A stretch of 7,581 nt of DNA. Origin: a virus. Lineage: Duplodnaviria > Heunggongvirae > Uroviricota > Caudoviricetes. This document shows, piece after piece, positions 1-7,581 of this stretch; position 1 is the stretch's first letter; each line of letters begins with the position of its first letter. The position numbers were made by a program, and so were the translations under genes. Under the pieces are notes generated by a model, which saw nothing but the letters and a program-made list of their open reading frames with translations, had not been told where the DNA came from and ran no database searches. The stretch is from the IMG/VR virus record IMGVR_UViG_2648501485_000016, positions 1-7,581 of that record. One strand, given 5' to 3'.

Positions 1-33
1 GCACTTTTTATATAAATCTATAATTATATAATT
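1..33 (-). promoter_or_regulatory. AT-rich conserved intergenic motif, copy C (promoter-like; strand uncertain)
   Basis: Plus strand 7-17 is TTTATATAAAT, followed by TATAAT at 19-24. The same core recurs at 1151-1160 and 6474-6484. It lies directly after the methylase stop codon (34-36). Truncated by the window edge. Confidence 0.4.
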
Positions 34-621
34 TTATGCCACTTGCCAGAGAGCATCATGCAACTGGATACCTCCATTGCACTGGTTGCCCCAGCCATGC
101 CAACCATCAGGTAAATCACCGCGAGCAAACAGCTCAATACGAGGAACATCACCTAACAGCCTTACCAGCTTGTCACGAACCACATCAGGCTTCCGAGAAT
201 GCTCCAGACGAGGCGATGTAAACGACTGAATGATCCCCGCATCAAGGCGGGTCGGCAATTTGCCTTTTACCGCAAACAAGCAATCTTCACTGTTTGCACG
301 AGTCATATGCCCCATCCCCATCACCAGCTTATCTGGTTGTCGGCTACCACATTTGTTCCATGTGAAGCCCTTCATGGTCATAAGCCTGAATCCCCATGCT
401 TTCACCACCAGCAACGCTTCTTCTGGCTGAGTCGGAACCCACCACATGGCCAACAAACACGATTCAGGATTAGCAAGCTGCCAGACAGGAATACGAGCAA
501 TATCCTCAGCTTTCATCGTTGGATACTTAAAACCAGCTCCACGATTCCCATCCTTACACTTATCTTTGTATTCCCAGGGGGGATCTGCATAAATCAGATT
601 AAACAATGCAATTGCCTCCAT
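34..621 (-). CDS. DNA N6-adenine methyltransferase, MT-A70 / phage Dam-like family (195 aa)
   Basis: The translation begins MEAIALFNLIYADPPWEY; DPPW is the catalytic motif IV of N6-adenine methyltransferases of the MT-A70 type. ATG at 621-619 is preceded by GGAGG about 10 nt upstream; stop TAA at 36-34. No adjacent restriction endonuclease ORF, so it appears to be an orphan methylase. Confidence 0.8.
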   Translation of the reverse strand: MEAIALFNLIYADPPWEYKDKCKDGNRGAGFKYPTMKAEDIARIPVWQLANPESCLLAMWWVPTQPEEALLVVKAWGFRLMTMKGFTWNKCGSRQPDKLVMGMGHMTRANSEDCLFAVKGKLPTRLDAGIIQSFTSPRLEHSRKPDVVRDKLVRLLGDVPRIELFARGDLPDGWHGWGNQCNGGIQLHDALWQVA

Positions 622-684
622 GTTAGTTGTGCCTCCGGCGCTTATCTCCGGCAGTCATAACGCTGGCCAGCTCTACAGCAGACA

Positions 685-720
685 CAACGAAAAGGGCACT
701 AACCAGACTGATTAATGCCC
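685..720 (-). terminator. Candidate hairpin followed by a short U run (minus-strand transcript), between the tRNA and the methylase
   Basis: Minus-strand RNA: GGGCAUU / 13-nt loop / AGUGCCC, then CUUUUCGUUG. A 7-bp stem including one G-U pair; the loop is long and the U tract short, so this is weak. Confidence 0.25.
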
Positions 721-865
721 TTGCCTGTTGTGTGCCGGATATCGCCCGACAACGCTGTTTTGGTAACACGGCTACAGTTCCGTGCCGCTCCAGCTTTTAC
801 CCCTTTGCGGATAACAGGCCCTGCCTGTACTCACTAACCAACGGCTTCCCGAAATGTGCACCAGG

Positions 866-920
866 CACGCATAAAGATGAGCACGAAGAAGTAACTCCAC
901 CGCGCTTATCTTTATGTGTG
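866..920. repeat. Imperfect inverted repeat (15-bp arms, 25-nt spacer) immediately 3' of the tRNA
   Basis: CATAAAGAT at 870-878 is the exact reverse complement of ATCTTTATG at 908-916; the arms extend to 15 bp with 2 mismatches. No U tract follows on either strand. Confidence 0.4.
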
Positions 921-929
921 AGGGTGAAT

Positions 930-1005
930 TGGTGGCCCCTACCGGATTTGAACCGATGACCGTGCGATTATGAGTCGCCTGCTCTAACCACTAAGCTAAG
1001 GGGCC
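930..1005 (-). tRNA. tRNA with anticodon CAU, closest to the tRNA-Ile2 (lysidine, AUA-decoding) type; elongator Met not excluded
   Basis: The reverse complement of 930-1005 gives a 76-nt sequence: GGCCCCTTAGCTTAGTGGTTAGAGCAGGCGACTCATAATCGCACGGTCATCGGTTCAAATCCGGTAGGGGCCACCA. It has a 7-bp acceptor stem (GGCCCCT/AGGGGCC), a D-arm, an anticodon stem-loop with U33-CAU-A37, a T-arm with GGTTCAAATCC, and an encoded CCA end. The acceptor stem and anticodon arm match my recollection of E. coli ileX; the D and T arms differ. Confidence 0.85.
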
Positions 1006-1016
1006 ATATTTGATTT

Positions 1017-1097
1017 GTTTGTCTGGTGTGGCGCCGCGCACGAAAATCCCAGCCAATAAATTCAGGATTTTTGGGCGCGGCGGCATATCAGACAAAC
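1017..1097. repeat. 81-bp imperfect palindrome (33-bp arms, 15-bp spacer, GC-rich core) between the promoter-like motif and the tRNA
   Basis: The left arm at 1017-1049 (GTTTGTCTGGTGTGGCGCCGCGCACGAAAATCC) matches the reverse complement of the right arm at 1065-1097 (GTTTGTCTGATATGCCGCCGCGCCCAAAAATCC) at 28 of 33 positions. The spacer is CAGCCAATAAATTCA. Confidence 0.7.
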
Positions 1098-1140
1098 ATG
1101 GTTGATGCGTGCGCCCATGAGAAAAGCGCATAGAATGTTG

Positions 1141-1177
1141 TAACTATATATTTATATAATTATAGAAATATATATTA
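1141..1177 (-). promoter_or_regulatory. AT-rich conserved intergenic motif, copy B (promoter-like), after the spanin stop and upstream of the palindrome and tRNA
   Basis: Plus strand 1151-1160 is TTTATATAAT. The minus strand reads ...TTCTATAATTATATAAATATATAG..., containing TATAAT and TATAAATA. Confidence 0.4.
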
Positions 1178-1384
1178 CTTTCGGCAGTTGATTTCCCATG
1201 CCCTGTTATGAGCCAGAATATCTTTCTTTGTCTGGCGGTCCATAACATCGATGTCGTGATCAGTCAGGTAGATGGGCTTTACCCAATCACAGGCGGTATC
1301 AACCACCACCGGGACGCTTCCACGACTCCCGCAGCTCGCGATCAACATCGTCATCAGCCATATGGTTAACACTCTGCTGTACAT
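1175..1384 (-). CDS. Putative o-spanin (Rz1-like outer-membrane lipoprotein, 69 aa)
   Basis: N-terminal signal peptide with a lipobox (LIASC) in MYSRVLTIWLMTMLIASCGS..., and further Cys residues in the short mature part. The gene starts inside the i-spanin gene in a different frame and extends past its end (overlapped architecture). RBS GAGGTG lies about 5 nt before ATG 1384. Confidence 0.6.
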   Translation of the reverse strand: MYSRVLTIWLMTMLIASCGSRGSVPVVVDTACDWVKPIYLTDHDIDVMDRQTKKDILAHNRAWEINCRK

Positions 1385-1577
1385 TCCCCACCTCTTTTGT
1401 CACTTCTATACGCCGCTCCGCAGTGGCTTTTACGGCGGCTGCATTCTCATTAATGCGCTGCTTTTCAGCTTCATCTTCGGCCTTTTCTCGCCCCTTCATA
1501 CGACCAAAACCAAACGCACCGAATGCAACCAATATAACGGTGCCGATAAATGACAAAACGGCTTTCAAACCAGTCAT
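1299..1577 (-). CDS. Putative i-spanin (Rz-like, 92 aa)
   Basis: N-terminal transmembrane segment (LKAVLSFIGTVILVAFGAFGF) followed by a highly charged, probably helical domain. ATG 1577-1575 overlaps the endolysin TGA stop (ATGA). Its position directly after the endolysin and the embedded lipoprotein gene support the call. Confidence 0.6.
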   Translation of the reverse strand: MTGLKAVLSFIGTVILVAFGAFGFGRMKGREKAEDEAEKQRINENAAAVKATAERRIEVTKEVGNVQQSVNHMADDDVDRELRESWKRPGGG

Positions 1578-2116
1578 ACCACCACTCGCTCTTTCATCCA
1601 GCCGTAGACAAACGACTCATTAGCCTCGCGCTTCTCCGCCAGCTCCAGATAGCGTTCGCCCTGCGTACAGTTCAGCGACGTCAGCATCACCCGTTCGCCG
1701 TCTTTTCCCCGATTCCCAAGATAAGCACGTAGCGCATTAATGGTACGTGGACCGATTCGTCCGTCTGCATCCAAATCGGGATACAGCTTCCCGCGCAGGT
1801 TGAACACATTCAGCCAGCGTTGAAGCATTTTTGACGCCACTGTTGGCCCCATGTTCACCCCCGTGTCACACAGCTCTGCGGCAATATCAGAGGATAATGC
1901 GGCCACCTGATCAAAGCGTGGTCCGTACCAGTAATCAGCCTCAAGGATTTCCAGTGCCTGTTCGCGGGTTAAATCGCGCATATCGCCACGGTATCCATGA
2001 GCACGGGCAGTGTTCTGAGTAATGCCCCACTTTGTTGGGCCTCCCTTGTCGTCAGGGTGATCCACATAGCCGCCCTCTTTTCCAAGAACGCTGTTAAAAA
2101 TCTCATCTTTGGTCAT
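1574..2116 (-). CDS. Endolysin, glycoside hydrolase family 108 N-terminal domain with a C-terminal peptidoglycan-binding domain (180 aa)
   Basis: The translation begins MTKDEIFNSVLGKEGGYVDHPDDKGGPTKWGIT, which carries the EGGY...D.GG.T..GI signature of GH108 muramidases. The C-terminal half has the PG_binding_3-like pattern (YPDLDADGRIGPRT). Confidence 0.85.
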   Translation of the reverse strand: MTKDEIFNSVLGKEGGYVDHPDDKGGPTKWGITQNTARAHGYRGDMRDLTREQALEILEADYWYGPRFDQVAALSSDIAAELCDTGVNMGPTVASKMLQRWLNVFNLRGKLYPDLDADGRIGPRTINALRAYLGNRGKDGERVMLTSLNCTQGERYLELAEKREANESFVYGWMKERVVV

Positions 2117-2399
2117 GATTAAACCCTAATGCGTCAACTATCCGCGCCAGATTGCCCCTGAAATACAGAACAACGATGCAGATAATCAGATTTCCAATAA
2201 CCACCAGCCAGTGGGATTCTTGATAAAGACCGAACACATAACGGAAGGGAACATTGGCGTATACAATGACGTAGATATAAGCCAGAAAGGAAACAAATGG
2301 ACGATGCCTGGAGTCTTTCCGTCGATAAAGCATCAGCGCCATTACTATTACTGTGCAAAGCACCGCATTAATCAGTGCTGACGGGTCACTGCTTACCAT
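2103..2399 (-). CDS. Small three-TMD membrane protein, holin or antiholin candidate (98 aa from ATG 2399)
   Basis: Three hydrophobic segments (ALINAVLCTVIVMALMLY, FVSFLAYIYVIVYANV, WLVVIGNLIICIVVLYF) and a charged C-terminus. Strong RBS GGAGGGGG 5 nt before ATG 2399. The longer ORF reading to 2435 has no RBS, so I prefer the internal start. Overlaps the upstream gene by 14 nt and the endolysin by 14 nt. Confidence 0.55.
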   Translation of the reverse strand: MVSSDPSALINAVLCTVIVMALMLYRRKDSRHRPFVSFLAYIYVIVYANVPFRYVFGLYQESHWLVVIGNLIICIVVLYFRGNLARIVDALGFNHDQR

Positions 2400-2781
2400 T
2401 TGAACCCCCTCCACGTAAGCGGGAAAGCATTCCAAAGATGCTACCGAGATCCTGGCTGTTTACGAACGTGAGGATTTTAATTGTCAATGCAGCCACAATA
2501 ACCGCACCAAGCGCATCAAGAGGACGATCGTTGTAGCTGGTCCATTTGGCAAGAAATGAGCCAACTAACGGCGCTCCAATCACTCCAACAATGAACGATG
2601 TAAAGAAATAGCCAATCAGCTTGAGACGGCTAATATTCACCGCTGTAGCAACATAGAAAACAGCGCCAGCAAATGCCCCGAATACAACGCCGTAATCAAT
2701 ACCAGTTGCAATACCAAAAACGCTGGCACCCATCAGGCCACCAGCAGCAACGGCCGTACCGGAAATTGGTTCTGCTGACAT
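2386..2781 (-). CDS. Four-TMD membrane protein, holin candidate (131 aa)
   Basis: Gly/Ala-rich hydrophobic helices (TAVAAGGLMGASVFGIA, YGVVFGAFAGAVFYVATAV, LIGYFFTSFIVGVIGAPLVGSFL, LGAVIVAALTIKIL). RBS GAGGA 5 nt before ATG 2781. It is the first gene of the lysis cassette. Confidence 0.55.
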   Translation of the reverse strand: MSAEPISGTAVAAGGLMGASVFGIATGIDYGVVFGAFAGAVFYVATAVNISRLKLIGYFFTSFIVGVIGAPLVGSFLAKWTSYNDRPLDALGAVIVAALTIKILTFVNSQDLGSIFGMLSRLRGGGSNGKQ

Positions 2782-2794
2782 TGAAATCCTCGTT

Positions 2795-2827
2795 AAAAAA
2801 AAAGCCCCGCCGAAAAAGGCAGGGCTT
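2795..2827 (-). terminator. Rho-independent terminator (minus-strand transcript), immediately upstream of the first lysis gene
   Basis: Minus-strand RNA: AAGCCCUGCC / UUUUUC loop / GGCGGGGCUU followed by 9 U. The stem is 8 GC-rich pairs (one G-U) plus 2 A-U pairs. On the plus strand there is a C-A mismatch and no T tract, so it is unidirectional. The U tract ends 3 nt before the holin RBS. Confidence 0.7.
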
Positions 2828-3010
2828 CATAAAGCAACAAATTACGCGGTAATCGCTTAACGCAGTTTTACTACGTTAAATGAAACACTACACCCAGTTA
2901 CCACCTAAAACAAGGTTTCCCCATAAAAAAACCTTCACAATGTGGTTAATCGATCGATAAAAAAACAATACTTAACTTTTGACCAACCGAACATCCCGAC
3001 CAGGACTTCC

Positions 3011-3039
3011 ATAATATTCGCCGATATGCCACTGCTTAA
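3011..3039 (-). promoter_or_regulatory. Candidate sigma70-type promoter for a roughly 210-nt leader RNA (weak)
   Basis: Minus strand TTAAGC (3039-3034), 17-bp spacer, TATTAT (3016-3011). The -35 element is poor. It sits in the 330-bp untranslated gap between the 119-aa gene and the terminator at 2795-2827. Confidence 0.25.
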
Positions 3040-3111
3040 GTTGAGTAATCTTCTCCAACTTAACTCCCATAGAGTCCAGTTTCTGCCATGTTTTCGGTTG
3101 TATGTGCTTCA

Positions 3112-3471
3112 TTACCCGCTCTGAATATCTGAATACTGCTCGTAAGCGCATGGATTCTCACTACAGCTTATCCAACCACCCGGAGTTACCGAAACTGGCG
3201 GCGCGGCATATAGCTTACGGGTCTGAACACCTGCCCCCTGACATTTCTCTTCCTCAACAAACCATTCGAAAGCACATTCCCCGCAATCTTCCCATTCTCC
3301 CCATTCATCATATTCTGCATCCCACTGGCGATACTGATATGCCACCGGTTCTGCTTCCAGCAAGGCTAACGCTATTTCATAAGCCCGGCGCTCAATATTG
3401 TCTCGCACATCCAAGCGGCCTATGCGCTCTTTGATTTCTTTAATCAGTTCTTTGTCGGTAAAAGTGGTCAT
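3112..3471 (-). CDS. Hypothetical acidic protein with Trp/Glu-rich and Cys-containing segments (119 aa)
   Basis: RBS GAGGA 7 nt before ATG 3471, which overlaps the upstream TGA (ATGA). About 25 Asp+Glu against 12 Lys+Arg. Contains EWGEWEDCGECAFEWFVEEEKC. No recognisable domain. Confidence 0.6.
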   Translation of the reverse strand: MTTFTDKELIKEIKERIGRLDVRDNIERRAYEIALALLEAEPVAYQYRQWDAEYDEWGEWEDCGECAFEWFVEEEKCQGAGVQTRKLYAAPPVSVTPGGWISCSENPCAYEQYSDIQSG

Positions 3472-3677
3472 TTGTTAATCCTCAAAACTTTATGCCCGGG
3501 CGCAAAAGCACGCGTTTTGTCTTTGCTTATTCGCCAGCCATCCTTGCGCGCCTCTTTTGCACAGCCAGCCCATGACGTACCGATATACTCACCGAAGTCT
3601 GGCACTGGATATACACCTTCCGTACACTGGCGGCAGTCACAATAGAGATGCATGGTGTAACTTGCGGCAATAGCCAT
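3468..3677 (-). CDS. Hypothetical small Cys-rich protein (69 aa), possible zinc-binding
   Basis: Strong RBS AAGGAG 6 nt before ATG 3677. Contains HLYCDCRQC ... C. Stop TGA overlaps the next gene's ATG. Confidence 0.55.
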   Translation of the reverse strand: MAIAASYTMHLYCDCRQCTEGVYPVPDFGEYIGTSWAGCAKEARKDGWRISKDKTRAFAPGHKVLRINK

Positions 3678-3678
3678 A

Positions 3679-4308
3679 TCATTCTCCTTTGATGCGAATA
3701 CCAGCAGCGCGGATTGCAGCGATGACTTCAGAAACTTTGTATGCCATTACCGTTTGGTAATCCTCGTGAAAATCTGTTCGATGAAGCATGCTGCTACGTT
3801 CTGGGAGCGATATTTCCCGTGCTTCCAGTTCTGCAATGCGCTTCTCTGCGGATTCCAACGCCGCAACCAATTCGTCTACAGTTCCGGCAGCTTGCAGTGC
3901 GTAATCGGTAATAGCCATCTCATGATCAATTTCAGTACCGTTCTCATTCGTTGAGGTGATAGCAAAATAATCAGAGTCGATTTCGTTATCAGCTAAGTGG
4001 CGTAGCGTATCGGCAACAAGCCGGCCGTTTTCGATTAGCAGCTTCCCTACCGTAAGCGCAATATCCTCGTTCTCCTGGTCGCGGCGTTTGATGTATTGCT
4101 GGTTTCTTTCCCGTTCATCCAGTAGTGCCAGCACGGTTTCTGGTCCGGCCAGAAATTTGAAGGCGTTGAGCGCATCAATATCCACACCGTAATCTTTAAG
4201 TTCCTGTTCACTTAACAAATCATCATCAGCTGGCAACATTAACAGGCGTTCCATTGCTGGAATTGCACGTTCCGCCGCCTCACGCAGTGCCTGATAGTCA
4301 ATTGTCAT
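3679..4308 (-). CDS. Hypothetical strongly acidic protein (about 209 aa from ATG 4308)
   Basis: ATG 4308-4306 overlaps the upstream TGA (ATGA), with AAGGA 8 nt upstream. The ATG at 4317 directly abuts the Shine-Dalgarno sequence, so I prefer 4308. About 44 Asp+Glu against 23 Lys+Arg. No recognisable catalytic motif. Confidence 0.6.
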   Translation of the reverse strand: MTIDYQALREAAERAIPAMERLLMLPADDDLLSEQELKDYGVDIDALNAFKFLAGPETVLALLDERERNQQYIKRRDQENEDIALTVGKLLIENGRLVADTLRHLADNEIDSDYFAITSTNENGTEIDHEMAITDYALQAAGTVDELVAALESAEKRIAELEAREISLPERSSMLHRTDFHEDYQTVMAYKVSEVIAAIRAAGIRIKGE

Positions 4309-4949
4309 TCTCGCCATCCTTCACAGTTGTAATCACTACAGCCTTCAAAATCATATGGGCTGTACTGCCAGGTTATTTTTCCGCAATGCGGACAATTCCA
4401 ACGCACCTTCCCGCTTCGCGACTTCTTTCTTCTGTTCTGCTCTTTCAACCAGTCAGGCATGACCAAACCTGCGCCCTGAACCATTGTTCTGCGGTTAAAG
4501 TTATTGATATTGAACGTCCGGCGCTTTGCTGCATCAGCAATGGAAAATGGCAACCAAACTATTCCTGGTTCGTTTTTGTTGACGACGCTAAAGATGGTCG
4601 CTTTACTGAAGTCATCTGTTGGCAATCCACCGTGTTGAAGCCAGTAAACATCGTTGCCGTTCCAGCTACCTTTTTTGTAGGCCACATACTCAGTGCAATC
4701 TGACTCAATCAGGCTTTCTGTAGGGATGTACTGGCAATCAACGTGCCACACAGCCATTGCATCCACACTATCGGCACAAACAGGCTGATCGATATCTCGC
4801 CCACAATTCCAGGCTTTTTGGGCTTCTTCCAGCGTGTAAATATGAGCGCGATCGATATCAGAACTGTAACCATTGCCGTTATGGCAATGGAATGAGGCGT
4901 TATTACCCACAGTTTCACGCAAGCACATCATGTAAAAACGGTTACTCAC
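4305..4949 (-). CDS. Hypothetical Cys-rich protein with a C-terminal zinc-ribbon-like segment (about 214 aa from GTG 4949)
   Basis: GTG 4949-4947 is preceded by AGGGGG at a 6-nt spacing. The TTG at 4973 listed in the ORF track has no RBS. C-terminus reads ...WNCPHCGKITWQYSPYDFEGCSDYNCEGWRE. Confidence 0.55.
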   Translation of the reverse strand: MSNRFYMMCLRETVGNNASFHCHNGNGYSSDIDRAHIYTLEEAQKAWNCGRDIDQPVCADSVDAMAVWHVDCQYIPTESLIESDCTEYVAYKKGSWNGNDVYWLQHGGLPTDDFSKATIFSVVNKNEPGIVWLPFSIADAAKRRTFNINNFNRRTMVQGAGLVMPDWLKEQNRRKKSRSGKVRWNCPHCGKITWQYSPYDFEGCSDYNCEGWRE

Positions 4950-5625
4950 TGGTTGCCCCCTGAATACGCTCAAACTCGATTACCCACACCCAGGGATTAG
5001 CGTTCCAACTATCTTCGCCATAAATTGATTTCCATAGGCTACGGAAACCTGGGTAATGCTTATCGCCAATGAGGGTCGATTCTGTTGGTGCGCCCTCAGC
5101 CCTTGCATCGCATTCGCTGATATCGTTCAACCGCTCAACGCGCACGTTGGTAATTTCCAGAAGAATGCGCGATGCCCAGCGCGGCATGTGAATTGATGGA
5201 CACCACCCGCCATCAAATTTTTCATTCACAGTGTGAGGTTTCCAGTCGGCATCATCGGGTATCGACCACAAGCCATAATCCCCCGGTTTTTGCTCACAAC
5301 TGGCTCGATAAATCCTTGCTGCGTTCTTCTCATCGCCACGACAAAGGTTGTCGTTCCAGTCCACACTGCAACCATCCTCATTGCCTAATATCGCCCACGC
5401 TTCACGGACCCATATGCGATCACCAACGTTACCGAACGGGCATAAACTATGTTCAGGTGCATCCATAACGTGGGTATAGACACCATTGCGTTTCTTTGTC
5501 GGTTTACGGATAACCAGGCAGTTATCGGCCCTGACATTTTTTACAGGTCGGCGAGTCTGCGTCTTCCTGCCTTCGAGGATGGCCCTAACCATATCGTCAT
5601 TAAAAACAACACCACGTTCTTTCAT
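4942..5625 (-). CDS. ASCH-like (PUA-fold) domain protein with a C-terminal extension (227 aa)
   Basis: N-terminus MVRAILEGRKTQTRRP ... GDRIWVREAW fits the ASCH pattern (G-x-K-x-x-x-x-R, then GD-x-hydrophobic). RBS AAGGTGG 7 nt before ATG 5625, which overlaps the upstream TGA. Confidence 0.6.
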   Translation of the reverse strand: MKERGVVFNDDMVRAILEGRKTQTRRPVKNVRADNCLVIRKPTKKRNGVYTHVMDAPEHSLCPFGNVGDRIWVREAWAILGNEDGCSVDWNDNLCRGDEKNAARIYRASCEQKPGDYGLWSIPDDADWKPHTVNEKFDGGWCPSIHMPRWASRILLEITNVRVERLNDISECDARAEGAPTESTLIGDKHYPGFRSLWKSIYGEDSWNANPWVWVIEFERIQGATSE

Positions 5626-5813
5626 TTAGAAGCCACCTTGTTCAATTTCCGGCGACAAGACACGCAATCATCAGGACTCTCAAAAGTGTCTGGCTCACGG
5701 TAATCACCAAAATACATCCAACGGCCGCAAATGCTGGTTACTTCACCTTCATTAAAATAATGATGTTTATTCGCCTTCATTGGCCTGACCCATCCGGCAT
5801 TTTTCTTGCTCAC
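5622..5813 (-). CDS. Hypothetical small Cys-containing protein (about 63 aa from GTG 5813)
   Basis: GTG 5813-5811 overlaps the upstream TGA (GTGA) and is preceded by GGGAGGAG at a 5-nt spacing. The ORF-track ATG at 5876 has no usable RBS and would overlap the upstream gene by 67 nt. Contains C-x19-C-x2-C. Confidence 0.5.
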   Translation of the reverse strand: MSKKNAGWVRPMKANKHHYFNEGEVTSICGRWMYFGDYREPDTFESPDDCVSCRRKLNKVASK

Positions 5814-6175
5814 TTCAACTCCTCCCGACGACGTTCCTGAAGCTCTAGCATTGCGGCTCGGAAATCCTGCCACCATTCCTCATCTGCAACGGGGGTGTTC
5901 CGCTCCAGCACCTTGTCCGCATCGGCGATCAGGTTTGACAGACTCTTGTCTGAAATCTTCGTTACCGGAGTCGTTGGTTGCTCAACCTGCCCGATAGGTT
6001 TTATCGTGCTCAAAAGGAGGCGACGGCGGGAAAGTGGTGCCCCACAACGACGGCCATCTTCCTTGCGATATGTTTCTTTCGGACCAACACACCAGGTTGT
6101 CGGCGTTTCGCGTAACTTCACTCTTTTCTCACCATCATTGGTAATGATTATTCCGGTATGGGTTTTGATGCTCAT
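5810..6175 (-). CDS. Hypothetical protein (121 aa)
   Basis: RBS GAGAGGGG 7 nt before ATG 6175, which overlaps the upstream TGA (ATGA). Basic N-terminal half, acidic C-terminal half. No recognisable motif. Confidence 0.55.
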   Translation of the reverse strand: MSIKTHTGIIITNDGEKRVKLRETPTTWCVGPKETYRKEDGRRCGAPLSRRRLLLSTIKPIGQVEQPTTPVTKISDKSLSNLIADADKVLERNTPVADEEWWQDFRAAMLELQERRREELK

Positions 6176-6453
6176 GCCACAGCCCCTCTCAACGGCTTTA
6201 CTTTGGCTAATAAGGTGTTAAACAACATGGAGTTAGGATTCATGCCAAATGGCAATTCCGGTTTAGCGGAGTAGTACAGGCAACCATTTATTTTCCTGGT
6301 TGTTATCTGTCCTTCGGCAACCATGCTTCTCAGTCTGCAACGCATAGAGTTCTGCGACACACCAATGTGTTCCGCGATTACGTCCACTTTTGAACATGGG
6401 TGATCGGTCAGGAAATTAATCACATCTTGGGGGTTAATAATTTTGCGTTTCAT
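6172..6453 (-). CDS. Small winged-helix DNA-binding protein (PapI/FaeA-like pattern), first gene of the small-gene operon (93 aa from ATG 6453; alternative ATG 6474)
   Basis: The segment INFLTDHPCSKVDVIAEHIGVSQNSMRCRLRSMVAEGQI fits a helix-turn-helix / winged-helix layout resembling small PapI/FaeA-type regulators. AAGGA lies about 10 nt before ATG 6453. ATG 6474 abuts the AT-rich motif with no Shine-Dalgarno sequence. Confidence 0.55.
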   Translation of the reverse strand: MKRKIINPQDVINFLTDHPCSKVDVIAEHIGVSQNSMRCRLRSMVAEGQITTRKINGCLYYSAKPELPFGMNPNSMLFNTLLAKVKPLRGAVA

Positions 6454-6473
6454 TGTCGAGGCGTCCTTATACA

Positions 6474-6500
6474 TTTATATAAATATATAATTCTATATAC
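6474..6500 (-). promoter_or_regulatory. AT-rich conserved intergenic motif, copy A (promoter-like), immediately upstream of the winged-helix gene
   Basis: Plus strand 6474-6484 is TTTATATAAAT and 6486-6491 is TATAAT. The minus strand reads GTATATAGAATTATATATTTATATAAATG. It sits between the hairpin at 6500-6519 and the first gene of the operon. Confidence 0.45.
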
Positions 6501-6519
6501 GGCGGGAGACATCCCGCCG
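6500..6519 (-). terminator. Perfect 8-bp GC-rich hairpin 11 nt after the stop of the upstream gene (terminator-like; no clean U tract)
   Basis: CGGCGGGA (6500-6507), loop GACA, TCCCGCCG (6512-6519). On the minus strand it is followed by UAUAUAGAAUU. Confidence 0.4.
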
Positions 6520-6530
6520 TAGGCTTACTG

Positions 6531-7581
6531 TCAGGCTTTCAATAGCGATTCTTTCAGATATCGGGCATCAGCCAGGGCGTTTGGAGTAATCTTGCGAACC
6601 CATGCATTACGGGTTGGACTCCACTTAAAGGCGCGTGATTTAAGCAGCGAACGAATGTTTGCCTCTGGTTTGCCAGGGAAATAAAACAGGATGCGGTTAT
6701 CCTCTGGATCTATCTCCATAGAAAAGCCGTCGTATTCTTCGCGCTGTGCTCCTGTTACAGACTTGACCGATTCAAGCTCCTTAATACGGCTCTGTAGTCG
6801 TTTGATTTCGGCATTATTGTTACTCAGTGAGTATGAAGGGAAGCCAATGTGCCCACAGAAATCTCCGGCGAGTAACCCTTTGGCTTCGCTTTCAGTAAAC
6901 TCAAGGTCAATTAATGCGGAAAGCTGCTGTAATTGGTCTTTTTTGTATTTGCGAATAGCCTTATTTGCGGCCTTCATTTTGATGTGTGACTTCATGCAGC
7001 CTTGCAGCTTACGAAGCAACTTAAATAGCGCATCAGGATCATCAGACGAAACTCCATTACGGCCGACACCTGCGGCTTTGCTTTCGTAGTACGATGCTCT
7101 GCTTTCACACTCAACAAACGATTTTCTGAATAACGCATCAGCTTTAGACAAACGGCGGCGATGGCCTTTCGCGCTATAATGGTCAACTAAAATCGGCTGG
7201 CCTAACGGGATCACATCCAACAGTTCATGCGCTCGCTTATGCGCCACCGCACCTTCTTTTCTGGCTTTTTCTGCACGAGCAATATATCGGGCAAGACGCG
7301 CGTTCTGGCGTTCCTGATAGGTATTTACGTAATCATCTCCGCGCTGCTGCTGTTCAAGCCATGCTTTGCGCAGCTTTTCTGTTACGTCTACCAACTCTGC
7401 AGGGATACAACCTGTTTGGGATTCATAAGAGTGACCATCCTCATAAAGACGTCCATCGTCTTCAACAACGAAAAAGGTTTCGTGCTCATCGCTTTTGACC
7501 ATACGGCCATTAACATGACGTAATCTATAGCCAGTATCAGTGCTCAACAGGCTGTTAGGGTTGTTGATCCAGTCAGAAATA
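6531..7581 (-). CDS. Hypothetical protein, 3' portion only (at least 350 aa; continues beyond the window edge); possible DUF3560-like region
   Basis: The reading frame stays open from the TGA at 6531 to the window end. The ORF-track start at 7547 is a TTG with no RBS, so the true start is upstream of the window. The motif LGQPILVDHYSAKGHRRR resembles what I recall of DUF3560; this is unverified. Confidence 0.65.
   Translation of the reverse strand, partial: ISDWINNPNSLLSTDTGYRLRHVNGRMVKSDEHETFFVVEDDGRLYEDGHSYESQTGCIPAELVDVTEKLRKAWLEQQQRGDDYVNTYQERQNARLARYIARAEKARKEGAVAHKRAHELLDVIPLGQPILVDHYSAKGHRRRLSKADALFRKSFVECESRASYYESKAAGVGRNGVSSDDPDALFKLLRKLQGCMKSHIKMKAANKAIRKYKKDQLQQLSALIDLEFTESEAKGLLAGDFCGHIGFPSYSLSNNNAEIKRLQSRIKELESVKSVTGAQREEYDGFSMEIDPEDNRILFYFPGKPEANIRSLLKSRAFKWSPTRNAWVRKITPNALADARYLKESLLKA

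Follow-up and report, generated by a model that had tools for sequence, protein, structure and literature searches.

Phage-borne tRNA-Ile2 genes, which specify a minor-isoleucine tRNA with a CAU anticodon, form a known class that includes the tRNA-Ile of P1/P7-type plasmid prophages and ileZ of the Stx phages. The P7 gene (NC_050152.1), the third tRNA of P1/P7, is part of the C1-controlled ban operon, where two other tRNAs (Asn and Thr) and small open reading frames (ORFs) precede it, and more than 500 P1-sized plasmids carry a tRNA-Ile gene. The ileZ gene belongs to a cluster of three tRNAs, the other two being tRNA-Arg genes, which precedes the toxin and lysis genes of an integrating lambdoid phage, while the T4-like Salmonella phage CF-SP2 has, in the large tRNA array of a virulent phage, an Ile2-type CAU tRNA that is 100% identical to Escherichia coli ileX and is annotated as tRNA-Met. 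Here we describe a single CAU tRNA gene in a 7,581-nucleotide stretch of DNA from a tailed phage of the Caudoviricetes (positions 1 to 7,581 of IMG/VR record IMGVR_UViG_2648501485_000016; this whole stretch is referred to below as the window). An earlier interpretation made from the letters alone, called here the sequence-only reading, had proposed a phage-borne gene of the tRNA-Ile2 type at this place.

The window tRNA has its closest homologues among P1/P7-type plasmid prophages, whose tRNA-Ile genes are 93-96% identical to it; the values are 93.4% for the P7 gene and 96.1% for that of a P1-like plasmid of Shigella dysenteriae. Both kinds of carrier are E. coli phage-plasmids whose tRNA-Ile would depend on host TilS, and the two tRNAs share A43, C44, the T-stem pairs A49-U65 and C51-G63, and a G.A mismatch at 27:43 (positions in the tRNA comparisons follow Sprinzl numbering). 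Unlike the P7 gene, the window tRNA is the sole tRNA, follows a lysis cassette and lies between two long hairpins; its flanks are unrelated to those of P1-like plasmids, and the tRNA body alone is held in common. The sequence-only reading had stated that Stx phages carry such a tRNA between Q and the lysis genes, and the order Q, ileZ, argN, argO, stx2 in AP012535.1 bears this out. The ileZ tRNA is indeed of the same kind, being a phage-borne CAU tRNA-Ile2 of a late-transcribed region, with C4-G69 and C5-G68 retained and 27:43 (A.C) unpaired; at 82.9% identity it is not the closest homologue, and the window tRNA belongs to a plasmid prophage. The CF-SP2 copy differs in turn from the window tRNA, whose gene is diverged, stands alone and belongs to a temperate phage-plasmid.

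We consider it likely that the window tRNA is a functional minor-isoleucine tRNA-Ile2 of a phage-plasmid of about 48 kb, that it depends on host TilS and that it adds to the decoding of AUA codons. The gene is already known, as a RefSeq tRNA-Ile, and is an ordinary member of the class outlined above.

Structure and isotype of the tRNA

ARAGORN detects one tRNA in the window, with CAT at anticodon position 34, and Rfam RF00005 gives a full-length match (1-71/71) at 933..1005 with 65.8 bits, compared with a gathering score of 29 (E 5.5e-13). The complete CAU tRNA of the sequence-only reading is thereby confirmed at positions 930-1005, on the minus strand, opposite to the strand as given. The fold of the lone tRNA sequence is moderately better than that of shuffled sequences (z -2.8); stronger evidence for the structure comes from a comparative test of eight Ile2-type sequences, namely those of the window, the Yersinia phage vB_YpM_41, the P1-like Shigella plasmid, P7, the IMG/VR relative L022, Stx2 ileZ, ileX and ileY. 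Over this set 96.4% of the cloverleaf cells are paired, compared with no more than 46% when the 3' partners are slid, and four pairs (6-67, 31-39, 49-65 and 51-63) show compensatory changes on both sides. This degree of pairing and these four pairs argue that the window gene is an intact tRNA-Ile2 (CAU) gene that is selectively maintained as a tRNA.

Among the K-12 genes, the window tRNA is most similar to ileX (88.2%) and ileY (85.5%), followed by the elongator tRNA-Met gene metT (72.7%) and the initiator gene metZ (63.3%). It differs from ileX at nine positions (13, 43, 44, 49, 50, 51, 59, 63 and 65). The acceptor stem, GGCCCCU/AGGGGCC, equals that of ileX in all seven pairs, as the sequence-only reading had stated. 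The further claim that the anticodon arm matches ileX holds for loop positions 32-38 (CUCAUAA, identical in ileX and ileY) and for the stem pairs 28-31/39-42, four of the five pairs, and fails at position 43, which is A instead of the host U. Likewise, the proposed divergence of the D- and T-arms applies to the T-arm, where all six changes (49, 50, 51, 59, 63 and 65) leave every pair intact and the stem has been rebuilt by compensatory substitutions; the D-arm has a single change, C13->U, which gives a U13.G22 wobble that still pairs, and its D-loop is that of ileX and ileY. The C13->U change is private to the window lineage (one of nine compared copies with the exact pattern), and position 44 is changed from U to C.

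Twenty of the 21 stem pairs of the window tRNA are standard, the exception being 27:43. No other position lacks a Watson-Crick pair throughout the eight sequences: it is G.U in the host genes ileX and ileY, G.A in the window family and in P1/P7, and A.C in ileZ and L022. It is thus unpairable (bases 979 and 963 of the window) in all four phage-borne Ile2 lineages compared, where the host has a G.U pair.

E. coli TilS tells tRNA-Ile2 apart from tRNA-Met chiefly by C4-G69 and C5-G68, with U4-A69 and A5-U68 acting as negative elements (PMC2500205; PMC11947777). Both positive determinants, the TilS identity elements to which the sequence-only reading had pointed, are found in the window tRNA and are invariant in all eight Ile2-type sequences; the pairs U4-A69 and A5-U68, which are also MetRS determinants, are absent. 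TmcA, which acetylates C34 of tRNA-Met, needs C27-G43, C30-G40 and G44 (PMC2500205; PMC9976931 Table 1), and the window tRNA instead has G27.A43, G30-C40 and C44. The bacterial IleRS identity set comprises A73, C4-G69, U12-A23, C29-G41, A35, U36, A37 and A38 together with D-loop positions (PMC9976931 Table 1). This set is present in full, and all TilS and IleRS determinants agree with ileX and ileY. Initiator tRNA-fMet is marked by a C1xA72 mismatch, three consecutive G-C pairs at 29-31:39-41 and A11-U24; the window tRNA has a paired G1-C72, C11-G24, C29-G41, G30-C40 and A31-U39, and so lacks this signature.

Annotation sources disagree in what they call the gene. RefSeq, through PGAP, names the 100% identical sequence tRNA-Ile, both in the E. 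coli plasmid NZ_CP028194.1 and in each of the listed full-length matches from E. coli. PGAP employs tRNAscan-SE. Version 2 of that program includes a dedicated Ile2 model (PMC8450103). ARAGORN labels the window tRNA as tRNA-Met, as do the GenBank records OR545053.1, OR545054.1 and OR545055.1 of the Yersinia phages vB_YpM_39, 41 and 44; these labels derive from the anticodon alone. The practical value of the comparison is a correction of annotation, from tRNA-Met to tRNA-Ile2, in these three phages and in tools that go by the anticodon only. Among GenBank phage records, OM912978.1 also names an Ile2-type CAU tRNA tRNA-Met.

An elongator tRNA-Met that reads AUG is very unlikely. The CAT anticodon and the tRNA-Met labels speak for it, and unmodified tRNA-Ile2 is a substrate of MetRS (PMC9976931), but the labels carry no information beyond the anticodon, U4-A69, A5-U68, C27-G43, C30-G40 and G44 are all absent, identity is 72.7% to metT compared with 88.2% to ileX, and PGAP assigns tRNA-Ile. 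Judged by its sequence, the window tRNA is a tRNA-Ile2 and not a tRNA-Met, since it is closer to ileX, retains the determinants for TilS and IleRS, has none of the features of initiator tRNA or of those required by MetRS and TmcA, and bears the PGAP label.

The carrier phage-plasmid and its AUA codons

Window positions 1-3361 and 5089-7581 are 99.7% and 98.5% identical, respectively, to plasmid pGMI14-004_3 of E. coli CFSAN018748 (NZ_CP028194.1, circular, 48,684 bp). This plasmid encodes RepA, ParA and a RelE/ParE toxin-antitoxin pair together with a full myovirus set of terminase, portal, capsid, sheath, tube, baseplate and tail fibres, and its annotation lists no integrase. The carrier element is a circular myovirus-type phage-plasmid of about 48 kb found in E. 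coli and Yersinia. Of 5,426 complete E. coli genomes, 70 have the tRNA locus, nearly always on a plasmid of 46-52 kb; the locus is also found on plasmids of E. fergusonii and E. albertii and, at 96-97% identity, in vB_YpM_39, 41 and 44 of Yersinia pestis, which were deposited as complete phage genomes. A plasmid of 48.5 kb in E. coli ATCC 25922 likewise has it. The phage vB_YpM_HQ103 is a different phage of 32 kb. Literature searches on the 48-kb phage-plasmid family and on ileZ returned nothing specific. The intervening part of the window, 3361-5089, is mosaic: it has no match in NZ_CP028194.1, and pieces of it are 94-98% identical to upf genes of P1/P7, to Stx-converting phages and to other coliphages (ead/Ea22-like and DUF551 genes).

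tRNA genes, ileX and ileY included, are common integration targets, which would favor taking the gene as an attachment-site remnant, that is, a prophage-host junction in a host tRNA gene. We regard the probability of this as practically negligible, and the view of the sequence-only reading that the gene is no host attB remnant stands. The locus has phage genes on both sides (spanins upstream, methyltransferase downstream) on a circular plasmid without an annotated integrase, so that there is no junction with host DNA; it recurs in the three Yersinia phage genomes; and the gene is full-length, 12% diverged from ileX with compensatory T-stem changes.

The tRNA is optional within the 48-kb family. 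At the same locus the diverged relative L022 carries an Ile2 tRNA of 84% identity, whose pairs 31-39 and 49-65 show compensatory changes, while in another relative, L023, and in the Salmonella salamae plasmid CP053324.1 the tRNA site is occupied by other sequence and the downstream non-coding stretch and the methyltransferase gene are kept. Because one diverged relative has a different Ile2 tRNA there and other relatives have none, the tRNA gene is accessory, not essential.

Such dispensability would also be expected of a hitch-hiking or decaying copy without function, gained by recombination from the host or from a P1-like plasmid, and the private C13->U change and the sharing of only the tRNA body with P1-like plasmids point in the same direction. 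This explanation is nevertheless distinctly unlikely: all stem pairs other than 27:43 are kept, the differences from ileX are compensatory or preserve a wobble, U13 still pairs as U.G, the identity positions are intact, and none of the 70 E. coli genomes with the palindrome region of the family (described below) lacks the gene. As for a chromosomal donor, the exact 3' half of the variant had no match in 185,579 species-representative genomes, and a degenerate pattern gave a single match among the species representatives, on an 83-kb Escherichia contig that, judged by its size alone, is probably P1-like; neither pattern identified a bacterial donor species.

Codon usage was counted in the 69 annotated genes of L002, the closest complete relative (99.7% identical over window 1-3361), from which all whole-genome statistics are taken in place of the window's own genome, and was compared with a sample of 34 non-ribosomal K-12 genes. 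AUA accounts for 15.3 per 1000 codons in L002 as a whole (24.5% of Ile codons) and for 3.35 per 1000 (5% of Ile) in the K-12 sample, with an odds ratio of 4.6 (p 3e-21). Usage is highest in the tail and baseplate genes, at 21.6 per 1000 (31% of Ile), followed by head and packaging genes at 16.4 (27%); early genes have 8.2 (15%), lysis genes 8.0 (13%) and the window's own ORFs 8.9 (16%). This excess of AUA, greatest in late structural genes, fits the usual view of such a tRNA as a codon supplement. The sequence-only reading had predicted a lysidine-dependent AUA decoder of phage origin and had pointed to AUA frequency in the late genes relative to the host; the 4.6-fold enrichment, the C4-G69 and C5-G68 pairs and the PGAP assignment are all consistent with that prediction.

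A functional tRNA-Ile2 would reach this role by way of host enzymes. Release from the transcript would be by host processing, with RNase P acting at the 5' end and RNase E and exonucleases at the 3' end. TilS is not encoded by the element; host TilS would recognise C4-G69 and C5-G68, which are seen in the sequence, and convert C34 to lysidine. From the biochemistry of E. coli tRNA-Ile2, lysidine would then block MetRS and permit charging with isoleucine by IleRS, so that AUA, and not AUG, would be read. The benefit would fall to a genome that uses AUA at 4.6 times the host level, mostly in tail and baseplate genes, and the extra decoding would most likely be supplied during late gene expression.

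Several observations weigh against this account. The tRNA-less Salmonella relative CP053324.1 has 14.9 AUA per 1000 codons (25.4% of Ile) compared with 16.4 in L002 by the same ORF method, and since it is equally rich in AUA, the tRNA is dispensable and AUA richness is independent of its carriage; the idea that AUA usage tracks carriage is ruled out by these two values. AGA and AGG are also enriched in L002, at 10.3 and 5.2 per 1000 compared with 2.6 and 0.8, and no tRNA-Arg is carried, so codon compensation is at best partial. The AUA counts at genome level rest on L002, and the comparison with K-12 on the 34-gene sample. Finally, substitutions in the anticodon stem are reported to impair E. 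coli TilS (PMC11947777), and efficient lysidinylation of a tRNA with G27.A43 in place of the host G.U is for this reason not guaranteed; set against this doubt, P1/P7 share the G.A at 27:43, and ileZ and L022 have A.C there.

These points bear on a further explanation, in which the tRNA is supplied against tRNA-targeting defences or infection-induced tRNA loss, replacing or outnumbering host tRNA-Ile2, and is not a codon supplement. A role of phage tRNAs against tRNA-targeting defences has been proposed (PMC10264068), equal AUA usage in the tRNA-less relative indicates that codon demand alone does not explain carriage, 27:43 is unpairable in the four phage lineages and G.U in the host, and the variant is found only in phage-plasmids. 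However, anticodon loop 32-38 equals that of host ileX and lacks the loop mutations of the described evasion mechanism (PMC10264068), and AUA demand is clearly high. For these reasons a defence role is unlikely. No E. coli nuclease directed at tRNA-Ile2 is known to us, which also counts against it.

With AUA decoding as the preferred role, the gene contributes to the debate on codon compensation as a case in which one accessory tRNA corresponds to the rare codon that its genome over-uses most, and the natural tRNA-less relative with equal codon bias provides a clean comparison for whether such tRNAs matter. Beyond this case and the correction of annotation, the locus opens no new question.

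Transcription of the locus and its flanking elements

All genes that neighbor the tRNA lie on its strand (Table 1), in the transcriptional order holin, holin, endolysin, i-spanin and o-spanin, tRNA, MT-A70 methyltransferase. The position downstream of the spanins claimed by the sequence-only reading is therefore borne out by the i-/o-spanin pair upstream of the tRNA. The o-spanin gene, which overlaps the i-spanin gene, is unannotated in RefSeq NZ_CP028194.1 and in the Yersinia phage records. In L002 the same strand continues after the methyltransferase with small genes, ParB-like genes, terminase, and head and tail genes, and the tRNA thus stands ahead of the morphogenesis genes.

Table 1. Positions of the tRNA gene, its neighboring genes and the associated sequence elements in the window.
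Feature	Position	Strand	Evidence and remarks
tRNA-Ile2 gene, anticodon CAU	930..1005	minus	76 nt, CCA encoded; ARAGORN, Rfam RF00005
Two holin-family genes	2386..2781 and 2103..2399	minus	PF16931 1.7e-37, PF05449 8.9e-18; phrog_198, phrog_217
Endolysin (GH108 and peptidoglycan-binding domain)	1574..2116	minus	PF05838 6e-27, PF09374 8.9e-27
i-spanin, N-terminal transmembrane segment	1299..1577	minus	phrog_1026 'Rz-like spanin' 5.9e-32
o-spanin lipoprotein, lipobox LIASC	1175..1384	minus	phrog_1275 'Rz-like spanin' 3.5e-33; overlaps i-spanin in another frame
MT-A70 family DNA methyltransferase	34..621	minus	next gene downstream of tRNA; PF05063 3.4e-23; phrog_359 1.2e-102
Strong intrinsic terminator-like hairpin	2801..2828	minus	11 pairs (7 G-C), then T run (TTTTTTTAACG)
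AT-rich motif, 8-bp phasing, core TATATAATTATAGA	1145..1174	no strand	right after o-spanin stop codon; perfect TATAAT at 1164->1159, minus strand
Second copy of AT-rich motif	9..37	no strand	window edge, downstream of methyltransferase; paired with 1128-1174 by inverted repeats I2 and I3; at the head of a promoter-like cassette in L002
83-nt imperfect palindrome	1016..1098	no strand	inverted repeat I1; 10 nt upstream of tRNA 5' end
55-nt hairpin	866..920	minus	inverted repeat I4; 9 nt past tRNA CCA end; forms in fold of 680-935
Conserved non-coding stretch, tRNA to methyltransferase	622..828	minus	holds intrinsic terminator and rydB-like hairpin
Intrinsic terminator-like hairpin	692..722	minus	consensus scan: 14 pairs then TTTTCGTT (U run)

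The tRNA is most likely co-transcribed with the lysis, methyltransferase and morphogenesis genes, either by late read-through from the lysis genes or by initiation at a weak promoter within the AT-rich repeat. A standard consensus scan found no sigma-70 promoter on the minus strand of positions 1-2900, and the best pairing upstream of the tRNA, obtained with a laxer scan, was CTGCCG-17-TATAAT, with nine of 12 consensus positions and a poor -35 (three of six); a sigma-70 promoter of its own for the tRNA is weakly supported by this pairing. The promoter-like motif noted by the sequence-only reading thus exists as a perfect TATAAT, but its -35 is poor, the standard scan is empty there, and the motif is one copy of a dispersed repeat.

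This AT-rich palindromic repeat has ten matches in the window compared with 0.05 expected, at 9-37, 1145-1174 and 6476-6497. The whole of L002 has 25, compared with 0.49 expected, in seven intergenic clusters (14037, 18886, 19578-19664, 23410-23439, 24627-24648, 29532-29553 and 30668) and with one isolated match, at 3545, that falls within a coding sequence; some of the clusters lie on either side of parA, its promoter region included. The L002 copies at 14037, 23418 and 30668 are each followed by an identical promoter-like cassette of about 60 bp with TTTACA-17-TAAGGT. Because the motif is dispersed, and the copy upstream of the tRNA is inverted and without this cassette, it looks like the binding site of a regulator rather than a tRNA promoter, and is probably the operator of a regulator or of a partition protein.

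Upstream of the lysis genes, the terminator-like hairpin at 2801..2828 precedes the start codon of the first holin gene by about 20 nt, with no promoter-like site in between. A terminator at this position suggests lambdoid-style antitermination control of lysis and of everything downstream, and on the simplest model antitermination would let a late transcript extend across the lysis genes and the tRNA. The annotation shows no Q-like gene.

Two hairpins flank the tRNA, both of sufficient length to be candidate RNase III substrates. The upstream palindrome, which the sequence-only reading had placed there, is real, with arms of 34 nt each (1016-1049 and 1065-1098) that are 85% complementary. It is nearly invariant and confined to this 48-kb phage-plasmid family, being found in the same 70 of 5,426 E. 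coli genomes and absent from the diverged relatives L022 and L023; sequence variation among its copies is too low for a covariation test. As a known repeat or RNA it was rejected: it has no copies outside the family in E. coli genomes, and its Rfam similarities are to microRNA-precursor hairpins, far below threshold. The minus-strand (sense) RNA folds at -40.3 kcal/mol (z -5.5) and the plus-strand (antisense) RNA at -54.5 kcal/mol (z -8.2). The antisense RNA (window 1006-1110) is thus 14 kcal/mol more stable, a gap that is due to three G.U pairs; these are too few to tell the strand of action, since about one in four such palindromes would show this by chance by our estimate.

Downstream of the tRNA, the non-coding stretch of about 210 nt ahead of the methyltransferase gene is more conserved than the gene itself, whose protein is about 75% identical. 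It is 76-78% identical overall, with long identical blocks, to L022 and L023 (2746-3000 in each) and CP053324.1 (40533-40769), and is present also in relatives without the tRNA. The stem of its terminator-like hairpin is preserved through compensatory changes in L022 and L023 (alignment columns 125-191). The last 56 nt of the stretch give a sub-threshold match to the E. coli small RNA rydB (27-29 bits, with 27.3 bits for the window stretch, compared with a gathering score of 50), with the common hairpin GCCGGAGAUAAGCGCCGG. A 48-amino-acid ORF (623..769, minus strand) is broken in L023 and not conserved, and was rejected as a small protein. The stretch may be an attenuator or leader that controls the methyltransferase, or a small RNA.

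These elements also allow a broader and quite speculative picture, to which we give a small chance of being right. The tRNA-Ile2 lineage, with A43/C44, an unpairable 27:43 and a rebuilt T-stem as its marks, would be confined to enterobacterial phage-plasmids (P1-like and the 48-kb family) and would move among them as a bare tRNA, a notion prompted by the tRNA body being all that the otherwise unrelated elements have in common. The open 27:43, seen also as A.C in ileZ and L022, could be adaptive and specific to phages, for instance through altered handling by TilS or TmcA or through resistance to a tRNA-directed host factor, and the hairpins and the rydB-like leader would make up a processed unit of tRNA and small RNA that serves the late phase or the plasmid state.

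The downstream hairpin shows one rearrangement. Its central 29-30 bp are exactly reverse-complemented in one E. fergusonii plasmid (L012, about 1885-1914) relative to 11 other copies, and template switching at the hairpin is the simplest explanation of this small inversion within an inverted repeat.

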